From a virus (lineage: Duplodnaviria; Caudoviricetes), in the IMG/VR virus record IMGVR_UViG_2889931527_000001: a DNA stretch of 64,000 nt; one strand, given 5' to 3'. Below are positions 31,288 through 47,175 of this stretch, in pieces. A program made the position numbers and the translations under genes. The first letter of the stretch is position 1. Every line of letters begins with the position of its first letter. The notes under the pieces were generated by a model, which worked only from the letters and a program-made list of their open reading frames with translations, made no database searches and was not told where the DNA came from.

Positions 31288-31600
31288 GTGTCACCCCCTT
31301 TGATTTTTGTATTTGACTTAACTCCGATTCAAAGCAATCCAAAAATCGCATCATCGAATCCGCTATATTTGGATTGCTTTTTATGGCATTCTGGATGATT
31401 GCATCATTACATTGCTGCACCCACGATTGATCTCGCGCGTTCAACATTTCTCCTGATATTCTTTTCCCTCCACGCACACGTTTGTTTGGTGTATAGATTA
31501 GGATATAATCAGGGGATATTAAGCTGTATATTTGCTTTTTTGCATACATAATATTGTTCTGCGTTGTCGGCAGAAGAAAAATCTTATACTGTGTAGGCAT
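31268..31600 (-). CDS. Hypothetical protein
   Basis: Overlapping junctions with terminase and portal. Confidence 0.6.
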   Translation of the reverse strand: MPTQYKIFLLPTTQNNIMYAKKQIYSLISPDYILIYTPNKRVRGGKRISGEMLNARDQSWVQQCNDAIIQNAIKSNPNIADSMMRFLDCFESELSQIQKSKGVTHVAESK

Positions 31601-33417
31601 TAAAACAACCTTCCTCGTTTATGCAGCACTCGTGGGTGATAGTTCTGGTATTGCGGAGCAAATTTCTTCTGCCTTGCAAGCTTTTCGATCATCGGCGTCC
31701 AGTCGGATTCTTTTCGCACAGATTCAATAAGCTTTTTTCGCTCTAAAAGTTGAGCGAAACGCAAGGCATATTTGAAAGCTGACCACATATCGCGTTGAAT
31801 TGATTTTGAAATGCGCGTTTCTGACCAGTTCATTGCGCTTTGCTTTTTCTTCAAATTCGAAATTTGTCCACACATTTCTCGACATTTAGCATAGGGGATA
31901 GCAAATGTCGCATCTTCATCCGAAGTTTGCAAATGGTGATATGTTTTATAGGCTTCTATGCCCTCATAGATGTTCGTAGTTAAAATTTGGACATTCCCTT
32001 GTTCAAACTGCACTTCTGCATATTTCAGCATTTCGCCGTCAGGGTCGCCATGTCCTGTTTCACGATAACCATTACTTGCGACAACAGGATAAATAACCGG
32101 AAGCGCGTCCGGCTGCTCCAATTCAGGATAATCATGGTTCCAGCAGCATATTGGCTGCCCATCTCCCATGTCCTTCATTAGCTGCTCTGTAACCGATTTT
32201 CCGTACTGTTTGTTATCGATTGCAATAAACGTACCAGCGCCGCCCTCCATGGAGTATCGACGCCATAGTTCTTTCAGATATTGTGCTTGTAGAGAAGCTT
32301 CTTTCGGACGCATATCCTGCACATACACAAGCTGCTTGAGATACGTGTCTTGCTTTCCGCGAAGATGCTGGGTCGTCAGTTTTACGATTGCTGCTGCACA
32401 CATTGCGTGCCGCGCACCTTCTTCGTGGGATACGTCATATCCAATAATGTATATGGCGTTCGGGTCTTGGCAATGATGGCGTTCCATGACCATGATCTTT
32501 TTTGATTCCGTCAGAACTTCATCACGAATTACAGAGTTTTCGCTTACGCCAGTATATCTGCTCTCCATTTCGCGCATCCATTCTTCGGGGGTAAGCTTTC
32601 GGCGCAAATCTTCTGCCCATGCCAAATCGCGTATACCTGATAAAACCGCCACTTCCCACGGATAATCGATTATAAATGCGCTTTCTCCATTTTGCATTGC
32701 CTTTAACACATCACATCTGTATTGGTATGTTTCATTCTGTTGCCGACACGCAGATGTAATATACTGCTTTTTAAAGTCAATGTGCATCGGGTCCGGTTGG
32801 CGGTCCACCTGATGGCGCAAGCGGATAGATGGTAGGATAATATTTCGATAGTTTCGGTGATCGAAAACTGGCTGTTCTTCCTGCCCCACTTCTTCACACA
32901 AAACTTGGTGCGAGTTATCGCCACGCATGGTAGTAATGGTGAATTCCGAACCGGTTTCGGTTTTCATCTCGAATGTCTCTTTGGCATTCTGTGTTTTCAA
33001 CCAATGGTCAGCGAGAGCCGGATAATTTTTTCGAATCTGAGTGAATGTAGCATCTGCAATTTCTGCTGTTTGTTTGAGCGATGGTCCGAAATATCGCATC
33101 AATTCCCCCGGCCACAAAACGCCTTCACTCATTTTTGACAAGAAGGATGAATAAGTCTTTGTTGTGCCACGCGAACCAGTAATGAAAACCTGCTGATACC
33201 GTGCCATAACACGAATATTGATCGCTTGAATCAGCGCCAGTGTATAATCGCTATCCTCCCCTTCCAGAACGGCAAGCATTCTATCGGGATACCATCGCCA
33301 ATATGAGAGTAAGAGTGCCCAGTTGTCGCCACTGATTTCATCATAATTAGCAGCTCGCGCTTGCCCTCTTTTTACCCATTTATGTAATGTTGGATTCCAG
33401 TATTTACCCGCAGGCAT
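31600..33417 (-). CDS. terL: Terminase large subunit
   Basis: ITGSRGTTKT Walker A; LCEE Walker B; YITSA; IIGYDVS nuclease Asp; RDMWSA. Confidence 0.9.
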   Translation of the reverse strand: MPAGKYWNPTLHKWVKRGQARAANYDEISGDNWALLLSYWRWYPDRMLAVLEGEDSDYTLALIQAINIRVMARYQQVFITGSRGTTKTYSSFLSKMSEGVLWPGELMRYFGPSLKQTAEIADATFTQIRKNYPALADHWLKTQNAKETFEMKTETGSEFTITTMRGDNSHQVLCEEVGQEEQPVFDHRNYRNIILPSIRLRHQVDRQPDPMHIDFKKQYITSACRQQNETYQYRCDVLKAMQNGESAFIIDYPWEVAVLSGIRDLAWAEDLRRKLTPEEWMREMESRYTGVSENSVIRDEVLTESKKIMVMERHHCQDPNAIYIIGYDVSHEEGARHAMCAAAIVKLTTQHLRGKQDTYLKQLVYVQDMRPKEASLQAQYLKELWRRYSMEGGAGTFIAIDNKQYGKSVTEQLMKDMGDGQPICCWNHDYPELEQPDALPVIYPVVASNGYRETGHGDPDGEMLKYAEVQFEQGNVQILTTNIYEGIEAYKTYHHLQTSDEDATFAIPYAKCREMCGQISNLKKKQSAMNWSETRISKSIQRDMWSAFKYALRFAQLLERKKLIESVRKESDWTPMIEKLARQKKFAPQYQNYHPRVLHKRGRLF

Positions 33418-34472
33418 TACGTATCAGGCCTTTCATATTTCATGGGCGGCAACTCCAAGCTTTCAATCAGTTTCTTTTCGGCTTCTGTGCTTCCTTCCTG
33501 AAATTCGCCCTGTTGAGGATCAATTTGCATTTCAACCGGCAAAGTGTCTGTCTCGCTCATACCCGAATTTCGACGGTATGCGTTCCAAATGGCAAGTAAA
33601 ATCTGATCGATAATGTCCTTCCCCATTGGGTATACCGGATGATCTGCGCGTAGAATCGGAAGAAGTTGATCGTAAGGCAACAACTTTCCGTTCTTCGCAT
33701 AGCCATTTCGTTCAAGAGCCGCCATCAATGTATCAATCTTTACTGCTGCAACCGGTGCTTCATCGCGCTTGCGCATCAGGTTATCAGCTTTCATCTTGGA
33801 AATCATGCCGTAGATTTCTTTCGCTTCTTTTGTATTTCTGGAAGCGCATTGCTTTTGATAGTCCAAAAGCAGTTTGCAGATTTCCCGGATATTGAATTCC
33901 ATTTCGGCATCAATGCCGTTTGCTTCGTATGATTTCGATTGGATGGAATAAAGCCGATCCAGTTCGTTGTAATCTGCCTTTGTCCAGTCATCGCGCTCGC
34001 CCCAGTCGCGTCGCTGCCGTTTTGTTCCGGCCTTCTCATATTGCAAGTTGTCTGAAACAATTTCACGATTCAGCTTTACCTTTTGCGTGATTCCGAACAG
34101 TTTTTCCACATCGGTAATCCCATCTGAGAACGCGCACGGTTCGCCATCAATTCGCGTTCCTTTTTCCGCAGCATCGATATTTTTTAGGTATACATCCCAC
34201 GAATAATCATCAAACACTTGTTCCATATTTGGTACGAGTTCAGGAATGAAAGGAATGTTATATGCAGCACAGCACAGGAAGAATGCCATATATGGAGATA
34301 CAAGGAACGCAAATTCTGAGAACTGTTCTCGCTGACATTTTTTGCAGTAATGAACAAATCGTGTATCACCGTACCATTCGGGTGACGCCACACGTCCGGT
34401 TTCATCGGTTAATTCTTCACCGCATCGCACGCAATGCACCGCAACATCAAGCTCCATTTCTTCTGCGTTCAA
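33417..34472 (-). CDS. Zinc-finger protein upstream of terL (small-terminase position)
   Basis: CVRC...CKKC; TTG start after AGGAGGTG; coupled to terL. Confidence 0.65.
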   Translation of the reverse strand: MNAEEMELDVAVHCVRCGEELTDETGRVASPEWYGDTRFVHYCKKCQREQFSEFAFLVSPYMAFFLCCAAYNIPFIPELVPNMEQVFDDYSWDVYLKNIDAAEKGTRIDGEPCAFSDGITDVEKLFGITQKVKLNREIVSDNLQYEKAGTKRQRRDWGERDDWTKADYNELDRLYSIQSKSYEANGIDAEMEFNIREICKLLLDYQKQCASRNTKEAKEIYGMISKMKADNLMRKRDEAPVAAVKIDTLMAALERNGYAKNGKLLPYDQLLPILRADHPVYPMGKDIIDQILLAIWNAYRRNSGMSETDTLPVEMQIDPQQGEFQEGSTEAEKKLIESLELPPMKYERPDT

Positions 34473-34500
34473 TTTTGTTCACCTCCTCGTATAATAAGAT

Positions 34501-34800
34501 TCAAAGTTAATAATTTCAGGCATCAGCAGGCATTGAGATGCCCGTGATACAATAGCTGTAGGACAGCAGGGTCAAGCTCTCCACCTCCTTGTTGAGCCAC
34601 AAGGCTGCTTCATTTTTAGTCTGTTCCCCTGAGCCGGAAGTCAGCTGCAAACTCATTGGCTGTTTGCCGGAGGCAAGGCCGCCCTTTCAGCAGTGAGGGC
34701 TTTCGCATTGGTCTGCCCCGGAATGATTCTGATACGCGAGGTTGCGGATGCTTCGGTTATCATGGGTATCTCAAAGCCTGCTGGCCTGAAATCTCCATGT
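34501..34800 (+). ncRNA. IS110 bridge RNA (predicted)
   Basis: Contains CACCTCCT and TTTTTAG (target guides) and CATTGGTCT and CGAG (donor guides). Confidence 0.75.
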
Positions 34801-34815
34801 GGGGAGGTGAAAATT

Positions 34816-36039
34816 ATGAACCCACTATTCGTTGGCATTGATGTGAGCAGCAGAAACAATGTGGCCTACCTGATGAAACCCGACGGCAGCAAGCACTCCA
34901 GCTTTTCCATACAGAACAACCTGGGTGGTGCTAAACTGTTATCAGAGAAGATCGTGTCGGCACTGCGTTCCATGCAGCTCAGCGATGTGGTGATCGGCCT
35001 GGAGGCCACCTCCATCTACGGAGACAGCTTGGTTTACGCTCTCCGGGAGGATGGCAGCCTGGGCCGGTTCCAGCGGAAGATCCATGTCCTGAATCCAAAG
35101 CAGGTCAAAAAGTTCAAGGAAGCCTATCCCGACCTGCCCAAGAATGACTTTGTGGACGCCTTTGTGATTGCCGACCATCTCCGTTTCGGCAGGATCGCCA
35201 AGGAGGTCTATATGGACGACTACCGCTACCAGGCGCTCAGGACCCTTACCAGGGCCAGGTTTGACGTGATCCAAAACCTGACCCGGGAGAAACAGAGATT
35301 CGCTAACTACTTATTCCTCAAATGCTCCGGCATAGCCCAGGACAAGGACATCCAGAACACCAGCGCCACCACTATCGCGCTCATGGAGCGGTTTGAAACT
35401 GTGGATGATCTGGCAAACGCCGACCTGGACGAACTGACTGCCTTTCTGGATGAGAAGGGCAGAAACTTCGCTGACCCGGCTGCCAAAGCCAAGGTTATTC
35501 GAACTGCCGCCAGAGACTCTTACCGCCTGCCTGTTACTGTGAACAATTCTGTAAATCAGGCGATGGCAGTCTCTATTGCCTCTATGCGGGCTCTGGAAAA
35601 GCAGGTCAAGGTGTTGGACAAGGCCATTGAACAGCAGTTTGAAATCATTCCCAACACCCTGACCTCTATCCCCGGGATTGGCAAGGTCTACTCCGCCGGG
35701 ATCATCGCCGAGATCGGCGACATTCACCGTTTCAGCTCTCAAGCCTCGGTTGCCAAGTTCGCCGGCCTTGTCTGGACACAGCACCAGTCCGGTGAATTTG
35801 AGGCTGAACACTCCCGGATGATCAAGTCCGGCAACCGCTATCTCCGCTACTACCTGCTGGAAGCCGCCAACTCTGTGAGAAGATGCGATTCCGAGTTCCG
35901 GCGCTACTATGACCTCAAGTATCAAGAGGTCAACAAGTATCAGCATAAACGCGCACTCGCTCTCACTGCCAGAAAACTGGTTCGGTTGATCTTTCGGCTG
36001 CTGAAGGACAACCGCCTGTATATCCTGCCGGAGGGCTGA
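34816..36039 (+). CDS. IS110-family DEDD recombinase
   Basis: FVGIDVS, GLEAT, KNDFVDA; SIPGIG...AEIGDI..F..FAGL...QSG. Confidence 0.95.
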   Translation: MNPLFVGIDVSSRNNVAYLMKPDGSKHSSFSIQNNLGGAKLLSEKIVSALRSMQLSDVVIGLEATSIYGDSLVYALREDGSLGRFQRKIHVLNPKQVKKFKEAYPDLPKNDFVDAFVIADHLRFGRIAKEVYMDDYRYQALRTLTRARFDVIQNLTREKQRFANYLFLKCSGIAQDKDIQNTSATTIALMERFETVDDLANADLDELTAFLDEKGRNFADPAAKAKVIRTAARDSYRLPVTVNNSVNQAMAVSIASMRALEKQVKVLDKAIEQQFEIIPNTLTSIPGIGKVYSAGIIAEIGDIHRFSSQASVAKFAGLVWTQHQSGEFEAEHSRMIKSGNRYLRYYLLEAANSVRRCDSEFRRYYDLKYQEVNKYQHKRALALTARKLVRLIFRLLKDNRLYILPEG

Positions 36040-36202
36040 GCGTACCGCTTGCCGCTCTGGCGCATAGGCCCTGTTTCAAAAAACTCAGGGACAGGGCTTG
36101 GATTGGTGTTGTCTTTTTCCTGCCTACATGGTCCTTTTTACTCATTCCCATTTGAAATTTTCTTGCATCACCTACTTGACTTCATACCATTGGACTAAAA
36201 AA

Positions 36203-36280
36203 CAAAAAAGGGCTGCAAACCACATTTCTGTGATTTACAGCCCCGATTGGCTTTTACTTTCTACCGATTAAGAAAGCAAT
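36203..36280 (-). terminator. Class B attenuator
   Basis: Same ~43-bp core as at 29463 and 40381. Confidence 0.8.
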
Positions 36281-36289
36281 GTTCAGTTT

Positions 36290-37093
36290 TTATGCAATGT
36301 TTCTGTCCATGACAGCCTGGATGCCGCGCCGCGTCAGAATTTCGTGAATCATCATTCGACCCTTCTGCGTCCATTGTGTGTGCAGTTTGGTATCCGGCGA
36401 ACCATCTGACCGCGTGATATTAATGGTTTTGGATTTTGTGTATCCCATGCCCATATACTTGCGATACAGAATCCATTGTCCGTTGACGTTATGCTGAATA
36501 CCTTCCTCATGCAGAATCTTGTTCAGCATCCGGGCGCTGAGATCATAGTCTGCCGCGACTTGGGATGTTGCCAGTGTCCCTGTGCTTTCCAAGATTGTAT
36601 CCACGTACTGCTTGATCGGCTCAAAGTCTTTGATGACTTGGCGCTGCTGCTCATTCTCAGATTCCAGCGCCTTGCGCTTGGCGCGTTCTTCTTTCAAATC
36701 GGTTGCCAGCCGAATAATCGTATCCGGGTCGGAAAGAATCTGTTCGATGGTGTCATCCGTCATGTATGCGCCGTGCTTGCGGATAGAGGGGAGGACTTCG
36801 GATGTCACCCAGCGCTTGAACTTCTTTGCTGTGGGAAGCTTGCTCGAAAGCACCAGAGAATATAGCCCGCTTTCGTTGATGATGATAGTTTCTTGCATTC
36901 TTCCCAAACTGTCGGTGAGTCCCCATTTTAGGGAGTCATCATCATCAACATGTGTAGCTAGTGCATTGAGTGGTTTTGCATACCCCAAAATACTTGCTAC
37001 ATCTTTCCCGACAAACCACGGCTGTTCGTCGATTTCAACCACTCGGATTTCTCCGAATTCCTCATTTCTGAACAGTTCAATTTTGTTTTCCAA
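36290..37093 (-). CDS. Phage antirepressor (Bro-N + KilAC)
   Basis: FGEIRVVEIDEQPWFVGKDVA...INESGLYSLVLSSKLP...WTQKGR. Confidence 0.92.
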   Translation of the reverse strand: MENKIELFRNEEFGEIRVVEIDEQPWFVGKDVASILGYAKPLNALATHVDDDDSLKWGLTDSLGRMQETIIINESGLYSLVLSSKLPTAKKFKRWVTSEVLPSIRKHGAYMTDDTIEQILSDPDTIIRLATDLKEERAKRKALESENEQQRQVIKDFEPIKQYVDTILESTGTLATSQVAADYDLSARMLNKILHEEGIQHNVNGQWILYRKYMGMGYTKSKTINITRSDGSPDTKLHTQWTQKGRMMIHEILTRRGIQAVMDRNIA

Positions 37094-37111
37094 AACGTTA
37101 CCTCCATTCTT

Positions 37112-37372
37112 TTACGCAAAAATTTCCCGTGCAAGCTGCATGGCGTAGCGGTAGCCCAGCAGGAACCCCATGCGCTCGGTCTTGACTTGGTGCATTGCGA
37201 TGAAGTCGGAAGCCGTGTTTACGTCGCCGCTATCTAGCATGCTGCGAACATCTTCGCACGGCAATGACCATTCTGCTTCATACAACGCATTCAGTTCCGC
37301 ATCTTCTTCCATCCGGCTTAGTGCATCCGCATGGTGCGCGTTTATGATCTCTGGAAAGGGTCTGTTTTTCAT
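37112..37372 (-). CDS. Conserved 86-aa phage protein (copy 3 of 3, inverted)
   Basis: Two substitutions relative to copies 1 and 2. Confidence 0.8.
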   Translation of the reverse strand: MKNRPFPEIINAHHADALSRMEEDAELNALYEAEWSLPCEDVRSMLDSGDVNTASDFIAMHQVKTERMGFLLGYRYAMQLAREIFA

Positions 37373-37482
37373 TTTGCTTTTCCTCCTTGATTTTCACCGG
37401 GAGGAATGATAGAATGGATTTACCATTCCTCCGGGTGTGGTGCTGTGAAGTAGTCCGCGATTTTCGACGGTGGCGGGCTACT

Positions 37483-37656
37483 TCACTTTTTTTGTCCCAA
37501 AACCAGTTCTAATCCTTCTCTGACAACATCTGTTCGACTTTTACCATATTTCTTACAATATGATTGTAGCCGTTTGTCCGTATCTTCATCGATTCGGGCT
37601 TTTACTTCGATGCTCTTTGGCTTCTCTGATTTTGGACGCCCTGTACGTGGCGACAT
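37483..37656 (-). CDS. RHH/CopG-like small repressor
   Basis: MSPRTGRPK...VKARID...SRTDVVREGL. Confidence 0.8.
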   Translation of the reverse strand: MSPRTGRPKSEKPKSIEVKARIDEDTDKRLQSYCKKYGKSRTDVVREGLELVLGQKK

Positions 37657-40345: not shown

Positions 40346-40374
40346 CCTGTCCTCCGTTTTCCTCCTAAAAACAC

Positions 40375-40452
40375 AAAAAAGGGGCTGTAAACCACATTTC
40401 TGTGATTTACAGCCCCGATTGGCTATCGTCATCCTCCACTCTGGATGATGTA
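40375..40452 (-). terminator. Class B attenuator
   Basis: Same core, preceded by a CATCATCC/GGATGACG hairpin. Confidence 0.8.
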
Positions 40453-41091: not shown

Positions 41092-41166
41092 TGGCTGGGA
41101 TAGCTGGATTCGAACCAGCGCATGCGGGAGTCAAAGTCCCGTGCCTTACCGCTTGGCTATACCCCA
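41092..41166 (-). tRNA. tRNA-Gln(TTG)
   Basis: Full cloverleaf, loop CT-TTG-AC, CCA end. Confidence 0.92.
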
Positions 41167-41170
41167 ATAT

Positions 41171-41458
41171 TTATTGTTCTTTCGGCTCGTTCGCTGCTTT
41201 CTTAATTTGAGCATTGAAGCGAAATCTTGGAATTTTCTTGGCTGGAACCATGATCGGAACATTTTTATATACATTTTGTCTGATTCTTTCCTTAGTTTGT
41301 GCCACTTCAAAAACTCCAAAATCTGCAATATGTACTTTTTCACCGTTAAATATTGTTTCAACAATGCACTTGCATACACTGTCTACAATATTCTCGATTG
41401 CATAGGCCGATGCACCTGTCTGCTCAGATACCTTTTTACATAGTTCTTTTTTGTTCAT
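41171..41458 (-). CDS. HU/IHF-family DNA-binding protein
   Basis: MNKKEL...GEKVHIADFGVFEV...VPAKKIPRF. Confidence 0.88.
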   Translation of the reverse strand: MNKKELCKKVSEQTGASAYAIENIVDSVCKCIVETIFNGEKVHIADFGVFEVAQTKERIRQNVYKNVPIMVPAKKIPRFRFNAQIKKAANEPKEQ

Positions 41459-41486
41459 ATTGGATCACACTCATAAATCAATCTGC

Positions 41487-41705
41487 TCATTCAAAATCGT
41501 AATGCTCAAAAATCCATTTTAGCGCAGAAACAAGTTCATCTTTCGACACGCTGTTGTGCGTTGCCATATTTGCAACATTGTCAATCGCTAAAATCCTTGT
41601 TTGGAACGGAATTGTTTCATCGTTCAGTTTATCTTTTACAATGTCGATTGCCATTCCGTCGGATACATTGAATGTGGGGAACGCAATCGTTTTACGCTTT
41701 TCCAT
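41487..41705 (-). CDS. Hypothetical phage protein
   Basis: ORF in the minus-strand operon. Confidence 0.5.
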   Translation of the reverse strand: MEKRKTIAFPTFNVSDGMAIDIVKDKLNDETIPFQTRILAIDNVANMATHNSVSKDELVSALKWIFEHYDFE

Positions 41706-41768
41706 TGTCTTTCATTCCTCAATGTTGTGCGAGATTTTATGCAGTTCAGGTAGTAGTCAGTTCATGTA

Positions 41769-42119
41769 TTACATTCCCATTTTTGCGCCACACTCAGGGC
41801 AAAACTTATGAGAAAAATAATATTCTTGGAAAACTTTTTTGCAATGAGAACATTGCGGCTTTCCTCTAAAATCTTTCCATTCTGCACAAACAACGGGAAA
41901 TATTGTTTTATCTTCTGTAAACTCAAATTCTTCTTTTAGCCATTCCAGAACGAAATCAAGTTCATAAGAACCAAACCCAATATCAAAATCGTTTTTTCCT
42001 TCGTTATACCAAAGAATTTCAAAGTATGTACCGATTTTGTTTTCTGTTGCAATGACTTGTGCATATCTTGTCATTATTTTTTTCTTTTCTTGCAGTTTTG
42101 GAGTTGCAAGTTCTGCCAT
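41769..42119 (-). CDS. Hypothetical protein with C-terminal zinc ribbon
   Basis: CSHC...FCPECGAKM. Confidence 0.6.
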   Translation of the reverse strand: MAELATPKLQEKKKIMTRYAQVIATENKIGTYFEILWYNEGKNDFDIGFGSYELDFVLEWLKEEFEFTEDKTIFPVVCAEWKDFRGKPQCSHCKKVFQEYYFSHKFCPECGAKMGM

Positions 42120-42454
42120 TGTTTTACCCCCGCTCCGTCTAAATCACATCATATAAATTTAGAATGGTTCAAGTTTATACCGCTTTTTGATTCTAAGTCT
42201 AATATTGTTTATGCAGTATGTAACCGTAATTCCGGATACTTTCATGTTTTCTACCTGCACTTCCATAAACAATAAAAAATAGAAAAGATGCAACCTGCTG
42301 CAAGACATGCCATCACCAATGCCAGCGAAATCATCATAACCATACCTGTAACATCAATAATCGTTTCAAACATTCCTCTATCAATCCTCATTCCCATATT
42401 ATCGGCTGCTATAATTTGCACTAATTTTAGACCTTCGCCTTACAAATCATATTT

Positions 42455-42975
42455 GCCACCATATTCAGCCAGCGAGTGAATAAGTCTGAGCATGCAACCC
42501 GTCGATCACACACTTCTTACCCAAGCGGCAAGCCGCCTAATCTCGTGCGGGATTGTCACCCGCAGCCCTTACACATCATTCAGAAATTGAAACATAATTC
42601 TTGTTTTATTTCTGCCTTGTGCCGGGTACGCAACGCCATGTTATACCCTTATTTCTAAGGTTCACGGCAAACATGGTTATTGGATTCCCTAGGTTTGAAC
42701 GGTTTTCCACGCCGTCCCTAACTAGGGTTATTCTCCCACAGGAAGCGTCTATTATCCATGCCACAGCGTTGCTGCTTTTGATGTCGATATAATTCGCACA
42801 CATAGTACATAGTTGGCGCTCTCACGCCTTCTGAATCGGTATCGCTATCGGTTCAAAGTTTTCACCAAAAGTATCCCTCTGGCTTCCACTCCATGAATTA
42901 CCCCATGTTCTCGGCAGGGTGATTATTCCTTCTTCACCGAGTTAAAATCAGCGCAAATTATAACAGTCGATCTTA
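42455..42975 (-). ncRNA. Large structured ncRNA candidate, ROOL-like
   Basis: ~520 nt with no credible ORF directly downstream of a tRNA; many short helices; 3' end GCTCAGAC...CTGAATATG resembles my recollection of ROOL (unverified). Confidence 0.5.
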
Positions 42976-42978
42976 AAT

Positions 42979-43054
42979 TGGTGGTTCCCCACGGATTCGA
43001 ACCGTGCCCGGGCGGTTATGAGCCACCTGTTCTCGCCTAGTGAACTATGGAACC
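42979..43054 (-). tRNA. tRNA with CAT anticodon (Met or Ile2)
   Basis: Loop CT-CAT-AA, T-loop TTCGAAT, CCA end. Confidence 0.8.
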
Positions 43055-43111
43055 AGATATGCGCCATCCGGTGTCAGATCGCGTGTTCCGTCACGGATTT
43101 GGCGCATCTAT

Positions 43112-43171
43112 TCGGGAGTGGTCGGAGTCGAACCGACAAGACACGCGATTTATCTTTGGCCGTATCTCCCA
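43112..43171 (-). ncRNA. Truncated tRNA-like RNA (acceptor stem and T arm, no proper anticodon arm)
   Basis: GGGAG/CTCCC stem; GTCGG-TTCGACT-CCGAC. Confidence 0.5.
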
Positions 43172-43298
43172 TGGTTGCGCGAGTTGGATTCGAACCAACA
43201 CAGGAAACTGCATTTCAACGTCTATCCGGCTTGGCGTTGAGCAGAAACCTTCTTCTACGTTTAACCACGCAAGCTTCTCCCAATTCGGCTATCGCGCA
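43172..43298 (-). ncRNA. tRNA-like RNA with abnormal anticodon loop and ~50-nt variable arm
   Basis: TGCGCGA/TCGCGCA-ACCA; GTTGG-TTCGAAT-CCAAC. Confidence 0.65.
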
Positions 43299-43303
43299 AT
43301 ATA

Positions 43304-43379
43304 TGGCATGAGCATGAGGAATCGAACCTCACCACGCGGTTTTGGAGACCGCATCGCCAGCCTTGGAACATGTGCTCCT
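43304..43379 (-). tRNA. tRNA-Trp(CCA)
   Basis: GCGGT-CTCCAAA-ACCGC; CCA end; one acceptor mismatch. Confidence 0.8.
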
Positions 43380-43384
43380 ATATA

Positions 43385-43815
43385 CCCCTTGCGGGGTATG
43401 CGTGATTTACGCCCACCAGCGCCCCGGCTTAACGGGGTTCTCAGCTTCCACGAAATTGAAAAACAGTCGATTATCAGTCATGCTGTTTTCGGTTTCCGAC
43501 CCTTTTTGGTCGGTACTTGGTGTCGCCACTCAGGATGCTAGGCGACGCGTGCAGGCCGTAATACGTTATCATCCATTCGCATTCGTGCCTTAAATCCCTT
43601 ACGGGAGATTGAGTAGCAGAACGGTAAATTTGTTGTGGATAGGCGGTTGCTCATTCCGCCTAGTGTCCTAACTTTGACCTTCCGTGGTTTGTGGGTCTCA
43701 AAAATCGCCGTTTACCCACTCATTCGCCACGTTCGAAATTCTGACGGCTCTATCGGTTTTTATCCGCCCGGCTTTCACGGGTAGTTCGTCAACTAGCTCC
43801 GCCGTGTACTTTGGC
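43385..43815 (-). ncRNA. Unassigned ~430-nt structured RNA candidate
   Basis: Lies between tRNAs; hairpins such as GGCGG/CCGCC, GTCGC/GCGAC, CCGACC/GGTCGG, TACCCC-GCAA-GGGGTA. Confidence 0.45.
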
Positions 43816-43818
43816 GGA

Positions 43819-43895
43819 TGGTGCCATTGACTGGACTTGAACCAGTGACATACGGTCATTTACGCCGATTGCTCTACCTACTGAGCTACAATGAC
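43819..43895 (-). tRNA. tRNA-like gene with enlarged, undeterminable anticodon loop
   Basis: Canonical D (AGCTCAGTAGGTAGAGC) and T arms, CCA end; loop CGTAAATGA. Confidence 0.65.
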
Positions 43896-43957
43896 ATGTG
43901 TGGGGAGTCAACATTACTCGACTCCCCGTCCGGCATCCACCGGACCTCTCTGTTATA

Positions 43958-44149
43958 TGCGGGTGATGATTTGCACATCACATGGTTGATACTGCCCGTG
44001 GATTTGCTAGACCCCATCAGGGTACGGGAGCGTACTTTCATCGAACCTTCCGTTTAAGCGTCTACTTTTGCAACCACGCCATTTGTGTGTGTTCAGGCCA
44101 TTCGGTTGCTTTACATCGCCACACACTAACGCTCTATTCCGCCACCGCA
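43958..44149 (-). ncRNA. tRNA-elbow-like RNA motif, copy 1
   Basis: TGCGG-TGGCGGAATAG...AGTAGACGCTT...TGATG-TGCAAAT-CATCA-C-CCGCA. Confidence 0.6.
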
Positions 44150-44152
44150 TAT

Positions 44153-44226
44153 TGGAGCACGAAACGGGAGTCGAACCCGCGTTCCCGGCTTGGAAGGCCG
44201 GTGTACTACCGCTGTACGATTCGTGC
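44153..44226 (-). tRNA. tRNA-Gly(TCC)
   Basis: CCGGC-CTTCCAA-GCCGG; TCCA end. Confidence 0.9.
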
Positions 44227-44583
44227 ATGTGCCGGTCTTTCCCGGCTGTCATCCGTTTTTCGGGAACGGCATTCCATATTCATTCACAAAAACTGTATGC
44301 AGCAAAAATCAAACGGTGTTCAAATAACCCTGATCTCTAATCCTGTTCACGGATTACCTCCTTACAAAACTTTAGAATGAATCTTCTGGCGAAATGCGAA
44401 TTTGTCGTATCTGGCAAATACGCGCTGGCCCGCCGCAGCCGACTTACATCTTCATATCTTTTGCGTCACAAACAAACTGACTACATCGTTTCATTTTTCT
44501 CACCTTTCTTTCCCGGACTTTTATCCGTAAAACCTATCGCCGCGTCCTCATGCAGACTAAGCGATCATATTTATTCACGTATT

Positions 44584-44838
44584 TCACGCAGGCTCGTATG
44601 TCTTTTGAAATATATCCGGTTTGCATGGATAAAATTCTCGATTTACACCCTTAATGATATAGTCTCCCACACTTGCATGAAGGTTCCCTTCTAGTGTATG
44701 AATCACTAAACCTACTTTCGGTATGATTTCAAACGATTCCGGGTCAATAAATTCGCATATTTCTGCATGGTTTGACCCATTCCATTGAACTGCATCAATT
44801 ACAACAGGTTTCTTGCGATATTTCATATCAATCTCCAT
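44584..44838 (-). CDS. Conserved small phage protein
   Basis: KYRKKPVVIDAVQW...GDYIIKGV..EFYPCKPDIF..TYE. Confidence 0.8.
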   Translation of the reverse strand: MEIDMKYRKKPVVIDAVQWNGSNHAEICEFIDPESFEIIPKVGLVIHTLEGNLHASVGDYIIKGVNREFYPCKPDIFQKTYEPA

Positions 44839-44902
44839 TTCATTTTACAATCAATACTGGATTGTAAATCATTTGATCGAACATTGTGCTACGCTGACAT
44901 GA

Positions 44903-45262
44903 TTACTTTTGCAAATCGTATAAGCTACCTACTATTTCAATGTTTTCCCATGCGTAAAACCTGCCATCGTACCTACTTAAATGAATTGATTTGTTCAATC
45001 TTTGTTTCATCCATTCATCAGCCTTTTTAGTAAGAGAAATTTCTCCTGGAAGCAATTGGATAATGTTGTAGCAGTCTGTTTCTTCTGGTGAAATACATTC
45101 TGTGCTATGTTGCTGTTTATAAACAATAACATAGCCAATTGGTCTTTTTAACAATATTGCTTGTCCATCCCAAATTTCTTTTCCAACTACACCTTCGGCA
45201 ATGATATCGCCTTCTCGTAACGTTATACCATGAATATCTTTTCTTGGTATCGCTTCTCTCAT
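44903..45262 (-). CDS. YopX-like protein (putative)
   Basis: KDIHGITLREGDII...IEIVGSLYD. Confidence 0.55.
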   Translation of the reverse strand: MREAIPRKDIHGITLREGDIIAEGVVGKEIWDGQAILLKRPIGYVIVYKQQHSTECISPEETDCYNIIQLLPGEISLTKKADEWMKQRLNKSIHLSRYDGRFYAWENIEIVGSLYDLQK

Positions 45263-45623
45263 TTCCTCACCTCTTACATTTTTAATACAATAAAAAGGAT
45301 GATATTACAATCTACAACCTGTTCACATTTTTGCTACTTAACGCCTAGACGCACATTATTTTTGTCAGCTTATATGCTATTAGCTGAACTTTCCCGTGTT
45401 GGTCTGCGTTGCCACACACAAACTCTGCTTCCACACCTCACATACTTTGCAATCAGGAATCACCCTTTTCATCACGGTACTTTTCAACCTCGCGCATGTG
45501 CATATGTCGCAACCGTTATCCCATTCGGTTGAGGTTAACCCATATAATTTTCAACGTGCCGCTTTCGCACAGCGCACACGCAAGACCCGTTCGCGGTGTT
45601 TTTCGCCTGTGGTATCATACATC

Positions 45624-45699
45624 TGGAGCCAATGGTGGGACTCGAACCCACGACCTGATGATTACAAATCACCTGCTCTGCCATCTGAGCTACACGGGC
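45624..45699 (-). tRNA. tRNA-Thr(TGT)
   Basis: Loop TT-TGT-AA; CCA end; one acceptor mismatch. Confidence 0.85.
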
Positions 45700-45705
45700 A
45701 TATTA

Positions 45706-45876
45706 TGCGGCCAAGGATTTGCACCCTGGATGGATGTTTTTACTTATCCAAGCCGTCTTGTGTCCTTAAAAGGTTACACATCCTCCGGTCAAGCGTCTAC
45801 TATTACCGTTCAGGCTGTCGCCCGTCTGGTTTTACCGTCCCACGCGGTACGTAGGCCGTCTATTTCCGCCACCGCA
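45706..45876 (-). ncRNA. tRNA-elbow-like RNA motif, copy 2
   Basis: TGCGG-TGGCGGAAATAG...AGTAGACGCTT...CAGGG-TGCAAAT-CCTTG-G-CCGCA. Confidence 0.6.
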
Positions 45877-45979
45877 CAAATTCTGTGTGTATTCCGTCTT
45901 TCAGCCGTTCCAATGGGACGATAGCGCACACAATCGCATCCGGCATCTGATGATTTTTTATCACCTCTATACAGAGCCG

Positions 45980-46840
45980 CTATCGTCTAACTCAACCGCA
46001 TAGCGACATATTTAGTGGCGGATAAGTTTAACCTCAGAACGCTTCTCTCACCAGCATTCCTATCTACTCTACATCGAGTAGACCCCAACTTCCAAAGGGT
46101 GCACATTATATACTCTACCACCGACAGGTCAGCACTTACCCATCTATCACTATATCGTGTGACTACTACGCCAAACAATCAGCAGCTTTTTTATATCTCA
46201 TGTTGGCGATCAACCCAAGCGAGAATGGAGCCACGCATACCTGACCGTTTGGTTATAAGCGTTAGACAAGCTGTGTACACTATTTGGATATGTTTCCATG
46301 CCTTTAACACTTGTCCCACGGAATTTTACCGTGCCATCATACACTCATTTTTGGCTGAGCAACCTTAAATGGCATGACCATTATATGAATCGAACCTCGC
46401 TTTTGGATAGGTCACTTCTGCCAGCCTGCTAACCATCTTCTACTCCTGTCGGCATCGAACTTCTCTTACTCGGTGCCAGATCAGGGGAGCAGGTTCACCA
46501 AAGGCAGTCTTTTCATCTTCTTTCGCTGCAAATACACAGACTCCATCGTTACAGTTATCCTCAGTATATCTGCATACCGTATATAAACGGCATACAAGGG
46601 CTGTGCTGTGTTAAGGACGTTCCTTTCTGTTTATAGCCTTGGCCTTCGGCATCAGAACATTTACAGCTTCATCTACATTTACACGGGCTTGGAACCGTTA
46701 TCCCAATATAGAGGGTGTTGCGAAAACATACATCGTCATATACCAGGATAGCTGTATTAAATTAGGTATTTACTGATGCTCCCATCGCTTGGAAGCTTCC
46801 CTCCATCCGCGTTCCTTGGCGTATTCTATACCCTCAATAC
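45980..46840 (-). ncRNA. Giant ncRNA candidate (~860 nt), GOLLD-like by size and context
   Basis: No credible ORF; starts right after tRNA-Gly in a prophage tRNA operon; 5' TTAGGTATT pairs with AATACCTAA. Confidence 0.5.
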
Positions 46841-46845
46841 CTAAA

Positions 46846-46919
46846 TGGAGCCAATGACGAGAATCGAACTCGCGCACTCAGATTGGAAATCTGATGTTCT
46901 ACCATTAAACTACATTGGC
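46846..46919 (-). tRNA. tRNA-Gly(TCC), second divergent copy
   Basis: TCAGA-TTTCCAA-TCTGA; TCCA end. Confidence 0.9.
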
Positions 46920-46990
46920 ATATTGCCGTCTCTTCCAGCTGTCACCACGGGTTTTCATCGTGTCCGACACAAAGTATCGAGCCGCTATCC

Positions 46991-47078
46991 TGGCGGAGCA
47001 GGAGGGATTCGAACCCTCGCACGTTCATCACGCCTCACAGTTTTCAAGACTGCTCCCTTACCACTTGGGTACCACTCC
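46991..47078 (-). tRNA. tRNA-Ser(TGA)
   Basis: Loop CT-TGA-AA, long variable arm, GCCA end. Confidence 0.9.
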
Positions 47079-47082
47079 TTAT

Positions 47083-47175
47083 TGCAGCGTGCAGGATTCG
47101 AACCCGCGATGCCCAGTCTCCACACGAAAAAATCCGGCGATCAACCAAGAGTCTTGCCCGCTTGACCAACGCTGC
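47083..47175 (-). ncRNA. tRNA-like RNA with expanded, ambiguous anticodon arm and no encoded CCA
   Basis: GCAGCGT/ACGCTGC; GTC...GAC D arm; GCGGG-TTCGAAT-CCTGC. Confidence 0.6.

Follow-up and report, generated by a model that had tools for sequence, protein, structure and literature searches.

An IS110-family insertion sequence in a prophage-like region and its predicted bridge RNA, with guides directed at Shine-Dalgarno sequences

Introduction

What directs an insertion sequence to the exact 5′ edge of a ribosome-binding site? The question is raised by a locus in a 64,000-nt stretch of viral DNA (Duplodnaviria; Caudoviricetes; IMG/VR record IMGVR_UViG_2889931527_000001; hereinafter designated the window, position 1 being its first letter and all coordinates below being positions in it), where an insertion sequence of the IS110 family directly abuts the Shine-Dalgarno (SD) sequence of a phage gene. 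Bridge RNA-guided recombination has been described for IS621 (Durrant 2024, PMC11208160; Hiraizumi 2024, PMC11208158; PDB 8wt6 and 9t56), and an initial annotation of the window proposed that the element encodes a bridge RNA whose target loop is programmed to the 5′ edge of SD sequences. This proposal holds up in all six copies of the element in its own genome and in 49 of 58 insertions of relatives, and is further borne out by covariation between guides and flanks. We estimate a probability of about 0.9 that the element belongs to the IS110 group of insertion sequences, is or recently was active, and moves through recombination guided by a bridge RNA with SD-directed guides.

Results

An intact insertion sequence between a terminator and a Shine-Dalgarno sequence

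Positions 34488-36196 form an intact IS110-family insertion sequence of 1709 bp, placed between a terminator and the SD sequence of the next gene. At the left junction, CACCTCCT (34480-34487) is followed by CGTATAAT, which contains TATAAT (34490-34495), so that the junction splits at the core as CACCTC-CT / CGTATAAT. The right end runs from TTGACT (36176-36181) through TCATACCATTGGA-CT, ending at 36196, into AAAAAACAAAAAAGGG, the corresponding split being TTGACTTCATACCATTGGA-CT / AAAAAA. The element ends (CGTATAAT... and ...CATTGGACT) have no terminal inverted repeats, and a 2-bp CT core is found at both junctions; we assign the core to the right end (36195-36196), the other CT copy being 34486-34487.

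The host genome (3.28 Mb, 11 contigs) contains six copies of the element with no mismatch across the 1709 bp. Their left flanks read ACCTCCT in all six cases and their right flanks AAAA in five and GAAA in one; beyond these 7 + 4 target bases the flanks are unrelated. The comparison of flanks thus yields a consensus, ACCTCCT, that is common to the copies, as the initial annotation had anticipated. Every copy lies directly 5′ of an AGGAGGT ribosome-binding site with its recombinase gene divergent from the target gene, the gene strand reading AGGAGGT, 6-8 nt and then ATG (TTG for the window copy). The junctions are 13-15 nt from start codons that open reading frames (ORFs) of 97-394 codons, and the products of the target genes are functionally unrelated: a phosphotransferase system (PTS) IIB domain protein, an iron alcohol dehydrogenase (Fe-ADH), a KduI/IolB protein, a small σ70 region-4-like protein, a protein without family and a phage protein. 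In the window, the last two bases of the target SD (34486-34487, CT on the + strand) constitute the crossover core, and the TTG start codon (34470-34472), 7 nt downstream of the SD, opens a 351-codon ORF. SD and start codon remain together next to the left end of the element, leaving the ribosome-binding site intact as had been supposed.

The identity of the six copies would suit an origin in which a larger block was duplicated or spread by homologous recombination, instead of site-specific insertion, but identity extends exactly as far as the element and the 7 + 4 target bases common to all copies, the neighbouring genes are unrelated, extended flank homology was looked for among the six copies and none was seen, and an empty allele of the window site exists; we consider the probability of such an origin negligible.

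The empty allele, which supports site-specific insertion, is a 5055-nt DNA contig from a chicken-gut metagenome run (X1) in which 34487 is joined to 36197, exactly 1709 bp being skipped. The shorter of its two flanks spans 43 nt, and the joint, in an A-run, has one A more. The contig represents the window copy's own site without the element, and the insertion is scarless; the restored CACCTC-CT-AAAAA is the sequence that the initial annotation had obtained by removing the element at the CT core. Loose contig ends in runs X1, X5, X15 and X16 place the element beside other flanks of the form CAT-N(5-8)-(A)CCTCCT. Runs X15 and X16 are recorded as RNA libraries and their contigs, which cover the element and in one case another SD flank, cannot show transcription. 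A megablast search of the element against phage and plasmid collections gave no match.

The same genome holds five further, empty 11-mers of the sequence ACCTCCTAAAA, SD-like by eye, next to 380 AGGAGGT sites in total. With five empty and six occupied 11-mers against these 380 sites, the earlier description of the target as abundant is overstated. The near-cognate empty site described earlier, CCTCCTAAAAA at 40361-40371, is present in the window.

The left end folds into a predicted bridge RNA with two loops

Relatives of the element were matched in 22 of 164 genomes of the same bacterial family and at 80 GenBank loci (63-95% amino acid identity), the latter mostly from Oscillospiraceae and other Clostridia. 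Left ends were located for 82 of 116 loci and reduce to 68 that differ in left flank, target loop or both; two of these, L024 and L036, were left out, their target loops not being parseable.

The region of the putative bridge RNA has a minimum free energy z-score of -3.9. A consensus fold calculated from 28 diverse left ends comprises 61 pairs, 12 of which show compensatory changes, including pairs in the inner helices. From 5′ to 3′ it consists of a stem-loop, a loop closed by AGGG/CCCU that contains an inner hairpin (loop 1, target-binding), and a loop closed by CCGGA/UCCGG that contains inner helices (loop 2, donor-binding). A weak match to the Rfam family SorX (26.7 versus 46.6 bits) in this region was rejected as a string coincidence that rests on ACCUCC.

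When the ends are joined, as they would be in a circle, TTGACT and TATAAT are separated by a 17-nt spacer, a spacing that arises in the excised circle only; a promoter scan of the linear form finds no + strand promoter at TATAAT (34490-34495). The junction of right end and left end (RE-LE) is predicted from the sequence to rebuild a σ70 promoter, and IS110 elements are known to have such a promoter at the junction (Durrant 2024, PMC11208160). The arrangement TTGACT-17-TATAAT, already pointed out in the initial annotation, reads directly from the joined ends, and both boxes are conserved in relatives. At three related loci (L047, L050 and L069), a tandem duplication at the junction comprises the initial 11-13 nt of the left end (CGTATAATAAG..).

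The target guides covary with the flanking DNA

Loop 1 carries the left target guide (LTG), CACCUCCU, on its 5′ side and the right target guide (RTG), UUUUUAG, on its 3′ side, around the small inner hairpin. The LTG reads in the sense of the left target plus core and would therefore pair with the bottom strand. This matches the published polarity, with pairing of 8-9 nt between the 5′ side and the bottom strand and of 4-7 nt between the 3′ side and the top strand (Durrant 2024, PMC11208160). Both segments had been singled out before as matches to the target (CACCTCCT at 34582-34589 and TTTTTAG at 34613-34619); both are present, with the qualification that the 5′-most C of the left one is matched in one of the six copies, that of the window.

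Among the relatives, guides and flanks change together. Over the five bases after the core, right flanks match the RTG of their own element at a mean of 3.17 of 5 positions, compared with 1.49 in cross pairs (48 insertions, 29 distinct right guides); at left flank positions -7 to -10, the LTG is matched at 2.10 of 4 positions in true pairs and 1.18 in cross pairs (59 insertions, 39 guide classes). None of 5000 class-level permutations reaches the observed match for either flank, a result that is not to be read as an exact probability, the related elements not being independent. The correspondence is illustrated by L074, in which an LTG CCCCCCU and an RTG UUUUUAG accompany the site CCCCC-CT-AAAAA.

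These data bear on the possibility that the site is chosen by the recombinase protein, or by survival of harmless intergenic insertions, and that the matches of CACCUCCU and UUUUUAG are coincidental. Intergenic insertions are expected to survive better, the guide-flank matches of relatives are imperfect, and AGGAGGT is common in the genome (380 sites). However, the junctions are exact to the base in all six copies, both arms covary with the flanks (29 RTG and 39 LTG classes, 0/5000 permutations), the arms occupy the loop positions of the IS621 structure, and about half of the cognate 11-mers are occupied (six, with five empty), against a small minority of AGGAGGT sites. Coincidental guide matches are therefore quite improbable in our assessment, and site choice by the RNA guides is the reading that we retain.

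CACCUCCU is also complementary to 7 nt of the recombinase's own SD (GGAGGUG, 34803-34809), and SD masking is a frequent control of transposase translation in insertion sequences, which would allow the segment to act mainly in cis as an anti-SD rather than as a DNA guide. The recombinase SD of relatives, however, stays GGGGAGGUG or AGGGAGGUG while the segment changes with the flank (AUUACCU, UUCACCU and others), and in the predicted fold the recombinase SD has a local partner, CUCC (34793-34796). We find a primary function as a cis-acting mask hardly credible; the segment is far better described as a target guide, for which a regulatory side role is possible. The predicted pairing of the recombinase SD (GGGGAGGUG) with the nearby CUCC forms a small conserved hairpin just 5′ of the start codon (34793-34809, +), a possible translational mask according to the folding model.

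Donor guides and handshake bases

For the donor, we grouped the relatives into 23 classes, that is, distinct combinations of right end, segment 34655-34663 and segment 34706-34714. The hexamer at the start of segment 34655-34663 (CATTGGCTG), on the 5′ side of loop 2, equals the right-end hexamer in 20 of the 23 classes, and in 11 of the 13 whose end is not CATTGG; the distant relatives L109 and L115, with ends CACTAG and GCTGG, show the same relation. We therefore place the left donor guide (LDG), CAUUGG-CU(G), at this segment. It reads X6-CU where the donor reads X6-A-CT and, with donor position 7 left out, would fit CATTGG(A)CT. Position 7 of the left donor is reported to be unusually mismatch-tolerant (Durrant 2024, PMC11208160).

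The segment originally proposed as donor guide, CATTGGTCT (34706-34714), does match the donor in its letters, but as an LDG it agrees with the right-end hexamer in 6 of 23 classes and in none of the 13 informative ones; its pairing pattern makes a role as one strand of a helix inside the donor loop more likely. The proposed right donor match, CGAG (34737-34740), is present and can be extended to a right donor guide (RDG), AUA-CG-CGAG, in which nine RNA bases would pair discontinuously with the seven donor bases CTCGTAT. The only RDG base that varies among relatives falls in the 2-nt bulge.

Both loops also carry candidate handshake bases, which by the published rule pair with the non-cognate and not the cognate DNA (Hiraizumi 2024, PMC11208158). 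After the RTG, 60 of 62 elements read TC; donor positions 6-7 are GA in 61 of 62, so that the UC of the target loop can pair with them, and it does not pair with the target TC. In the donor loop, G34741, directly after CGAG, lies opposite target position 7, which is C in all 61 of 61 cases and with which it can pair, and does not pair with the donor A.

Recombinase

The element encodes a protein of 407 amino acids with matches to PF01548 (E 1.7e-28, residues 6-166) and PF02371 (E 4e-26, residues 281-365). Aligned to IS621 (8wt6) and ISCro4 (9t56), it retains D9, E63, D111, D114 and S325, the motifs opposite the IS621 catalytic residues (8wt6_A) being GID (D9), LEAT (E63), NDFVDA (D111 and D114) and QSG (S325). 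The numbering of 8wt6_A appears to be offset by 2 from that of the paper, from which the roles of the catalytic residues are taken (Hiraizumi 2024, PMC11208158).

Shine-Dalgarno sequences as targets across the lineage

SD-like sequence recurs in the guides and sites of the relatives. CTCC is found in 35 and CCTCC in 26 of 43 LTG classes, and among 45 restored sites 41 contain CTCC or CCTC and 33 contain CCTCC. A start codon with an ORF lies next to the junction in 49 of 58 insertions, in 39 of these 49 at 12-14 nt; the test required at least 30 nt of left flank, a start 6-23 nt from the junction, and an ORF of at least 60 codons or reaching the end of the locus. Two registers are used: most elements cross at the last CT of CCTCCT, that is, the 5′ edge of the SD, and a minority (L031, L050/51/56, L071, L073, L099 and L111) at the first CT, in the middle of GGAGG.

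The 16S rRNA of the host ends in GGAUCACCUCCUUUCU, with the tail CACCUCCUU, so the LTG together with the next base (34590) copies 9 nt of the anti-SD tail. We tentatively propose, at slightly short of even odds, that SD homing is a conserved strategy of this whole IS110 lineage of gut Clostridia, in which the left guide is kept as an anti-SD copy, the right guide drifts, and the resulting variants sample different subsets of ribosome-binding sites in two registers. If true, this strategy would offer the lineage a safe harbour that does not depend on the host, which could be why it has spread to many genera. A bolder and as yet unsupported idea is that the SDs of mRNAs, including that of the recombinase, are further pairing partners of the anti-SD loop, which would thereby affect translation.

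In two different genomes, copies of the same variant (L061 and L062) have different left flanks and a right flank that is identical over 20 nt (TACCCAGCTTTTGCCACGCT); the element may adjoin another mobile sequence there. The end of the 16S gene in the host genome (G000; C4, C6), CACCTCCTTTCT, is a near-cognate target for relatives with the right guide GAAAG (CTTTC).

Genomic context

The window copy is located in a prophage-like stretch, with an Ant/Bro anti-repressor gene at 36290-37093 to its right (the features of the element and its immediate target are collected in Table 1). The T-tract of the terminator runs straight into the SD that was hit, so the right target AAAAA is the T-tract of the terminator. 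This terminator-like hairpin of ~55 nt plus T-tract occurs in two near-identical copies (36197-36280 and 40367-40450, both on the - strand), each running straight into the SD of the following gene, and the near-cognate empty site adjoins the second (near 40380-40425). The first copy, outside the element, has a sub-threshold match to the Rfam gut-2 RNA (34.9 versus 39.8 bits). A full-length ROOL RNA (RF03087, 338.9 bits) lies at 42410-42965 (-) in the prophage-like region beside the element, amid eight tRNA genes on the same strand (41095-47175, -).

Further along the - strand, the gene at 31600-33417 had been named terL. Its 605-amino-acid product has no Pfam family, matches PHROGs of unknown function only and has no PDB relative by sequence; none of the three collections gave a terminase match that would confirm the label. 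A candidate promoter directed outward at the target gene was rejected: the sole minus-strand match (CTGAAA, 17 nt, TATTAT; 9/12) is not conserved, would start transcription within the SD and lies in a region with a 33-nt insertion in some relatives.

Table 1 Features of the element and its surroundings, in window coordinates.
Feature	Position	Strand	Basis or remark
IS110-family insertion sequence, 1709 bp	34488-36196	+	Identical copies, empty-site contig, ends conserved in relatives
Target sequence cognate to the guides, TTTTAGGAGGT			
Predicted -10 box of junction promoter, TATAAT	34490-34495	+	Conserved in relatives; no good -35 box when integrated
Predicted -35 box, TTGACT	36176-36181	+	Kept as CTTGACTT in relatives
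Putative bridge RNA (inferred extent)	34500-34760	+	Start ~7 nt past -10 box; end past closing helix of donor loop
Target-binding loop	34568-34630	+	Consensus fold; stem AGGG 34568-34571/CCCT 34627-34630, inner hairpin AGCC 34595-34598/GGCT 34603-34606
LTG, CACCUCCU	34582-34589	+	Matches ACCTCCT in 6/6 flanks; covaries with left flank
RTG, UUUUUAG	34613-34619	+	Complementary to core plus right target, CTAAAAA
Candidate handshake guide of target loop, UC	34620-34621	+	Complementary to donor positions 6-7 (GA)
Donor-binding loop	34634-34756	+	Consensus fold; closing stem CCGGA 34634-34638/UUCGG 34752-34756
LDG, CAUUGG-CU(G), CATTGGCTG	34655-34663	+	5′ side of loop 2; covaries with right end
Donor guide proposed earlier, CATTGGTCT	34706-34714	+	Pairs with 34676-34681, compensatory changes (alignment columns 239-244/273-279)
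RDG, AUA-CG-CGAG	34732-34740	+	Nine RNA bases pair discontinuously with seven donor bases, CTCGTAT
Recombinase gene, 407 amino acids, DEDD RuvC-like and Tnp domains	34816-36039	+	Pfam; alignment to IS621 and ISCro4
SD of target gene, AGGAGGTG, intact beside left end	34480-34487	-	Sequence read; comparison of copies
Target gene, 351 amino acids, phage protein of unknown function	33417-34472	-	phrog_3314, E 3.8e-15; no Pfam family
Intrinsic-terminator-like hairpin (36209-36244) plus T-tract	36197-36244	-	16-pair stem, then TTTTTTGTTTT
Near-cognate empty site, TCCTCCTAAAAA	40360-40371	+	One mismatch from the 11-mer; compared with the element's target

Discussion

Taken together, the element limits, the copies and their flanks, the empty site and the conserved fold and guides fit the following course of events, modelled on IS621. 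Excision would yield a circle, the RE-LE junction of which would form a σ70 promoter; transcription of the left end from this promoter would produce a bridge RNA of ~260 nt, to be bound by the recombinase. Loop 1, through CACCUCCU and UUUUUAG, would specify ACCTC-CT-AAAA, which on the gene strand reads TTTT-AG-GAGGT, an A/T run followed by a strong SD, and loop 2, through CAUUGG-CU and AUA..CGAG, would recognise the joined ends of the element itself, CATTGGA-CT-CGTAT. Strand exchange by the DEDD/Ser recombinase would then take place at the CT core. As the crossover falls on the 5′ edge of the SD, it does not part the SD from the start codon, and the element would always end up divergent from the target gene.

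Several observations weigh against this reading. No Rfam family was found at threshold, either in 33500-37500 (with E-values) or in the whole window and the element (gathering score), and the RE-LE joint of a circle was not seen in the contigs of four runs, which are non-probative in this respect. The RNA, the circle and current activity are predictions from sequence and from analogy with IS621. The guide matches of relatives are partial: of the five right-flank bases, five match in 5 insertions, four in 14, three in 14, two in 14 and one in 1; L015 sits at a site without likeness to its own guides, and in 24 of 43 LTG classes a base other than U faces the second core position, although the LDG of IS621 also ends one base short (Hiraizumi 2024, PMC11208158). 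For the left guides the exact register is ambiguous (final U paired or not, donor base skipped or not), the LDG needing either one skipped donor base or three mismatches, with its last three bases unpaired. The RDG and its donor half are invariant, so that covariation cannot test this arm, which depends on complementarity alone. Finally, 9 of the 58 insertions fail the start-codon and ORF test, and the ORF test is lenient, being passed by 1080 of 5000 random positions and by 230 of the 380 AGGAGGT sites.

The element is a well-documented natural case of bridge-RNA programming in which the target is a universal functional motif, the SD, rather than a host-specific repeat, and in which a conserved left guide and a variable right guide would choose the SDs that are hit. 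The relatives also supply natural data on guide rules (7-nt right guides, a last base of the left guide for which pairing is dispensable, a skipped donor position 7 and handshake bases) that may aid the design of bridge recombinases. For annotation, SD-directed insertion accounts for the precise location of such elements, with a terminator or upstream gene on one side and the following SD on the other, and for their invariably divergent orientation relative to the gene; polar effects of the insertion, here on a prophage operon, are possible.

A literature search on IS110 elements or bridge RNAs combined with SD found no explicit statement of SD targeting in the portions of the sources that it covered; Durrant Supplementary Data 2 and the target logos of Siddiquee may list such targets. 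Among known systems, IS900 reportedly inserts between the SD and the start codon, whereas the insertion point of the element described here, the 5′ edge of the SD, leaves the two together. Both belong to the IS110 family. The IS900 target motif, in Mycobacterium avium subsp. paratuberculosis, is CATGNNNNNNTCTCCTT, the other strand of which reads as an SD-like AAGGAGA followed by a start codon, and its insertion is orientation-specific as well (PMC8141618). The host phylum differs, and the parts of that publication used here do not treat the target in bridge-RNA terms (PMC8141618). The IS1111-type seekRNA elements (ISEc11, ISKpn4 and ISPa11; Siddiquee 2024, PMC11187229) likewise have an RNA-guided DEDD transposase and element-specific targets, but their guide RNA lies downstream of the transposase gene and their inverted repeats are subterminal, in contrast to the putative RNA in the left end, upstream of the gene, in the element described here.

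The closest parallels are IS621 of E. coli and ISCro4, with which the element has in common both protein domains, the catalytic residues, the CT core, the predicted junction promoter and a left-end bridge RNA whose two loops are each built of stem, left guide, stem-loop and right guide (Durrant 2024, PMC11208160; Hiraizumi 2024, PMC11208158). The discontinuous nine-on-seven RDG and the handshake bases are features of IS621, too. The differences from IS621 are that the recombinase is distant (E 2.7e-13) and longer (407 versus ~326 amino acids), that an SD preceded by an A/T run, and not a repetitive extragenic palindromic (REP) element, serves as natural target, that the RTG has 7 nt instead of 4, that the LDG appears to skip donor position 7, and that the element is known here from sequence. 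The mechanism is that of IS621 and already known, and the element is a clear natural example of it, not a new kind of system, whose most interesting aspect is that, across the lineage, an anti-SD left guide appears to be kept while the right guide drifts.

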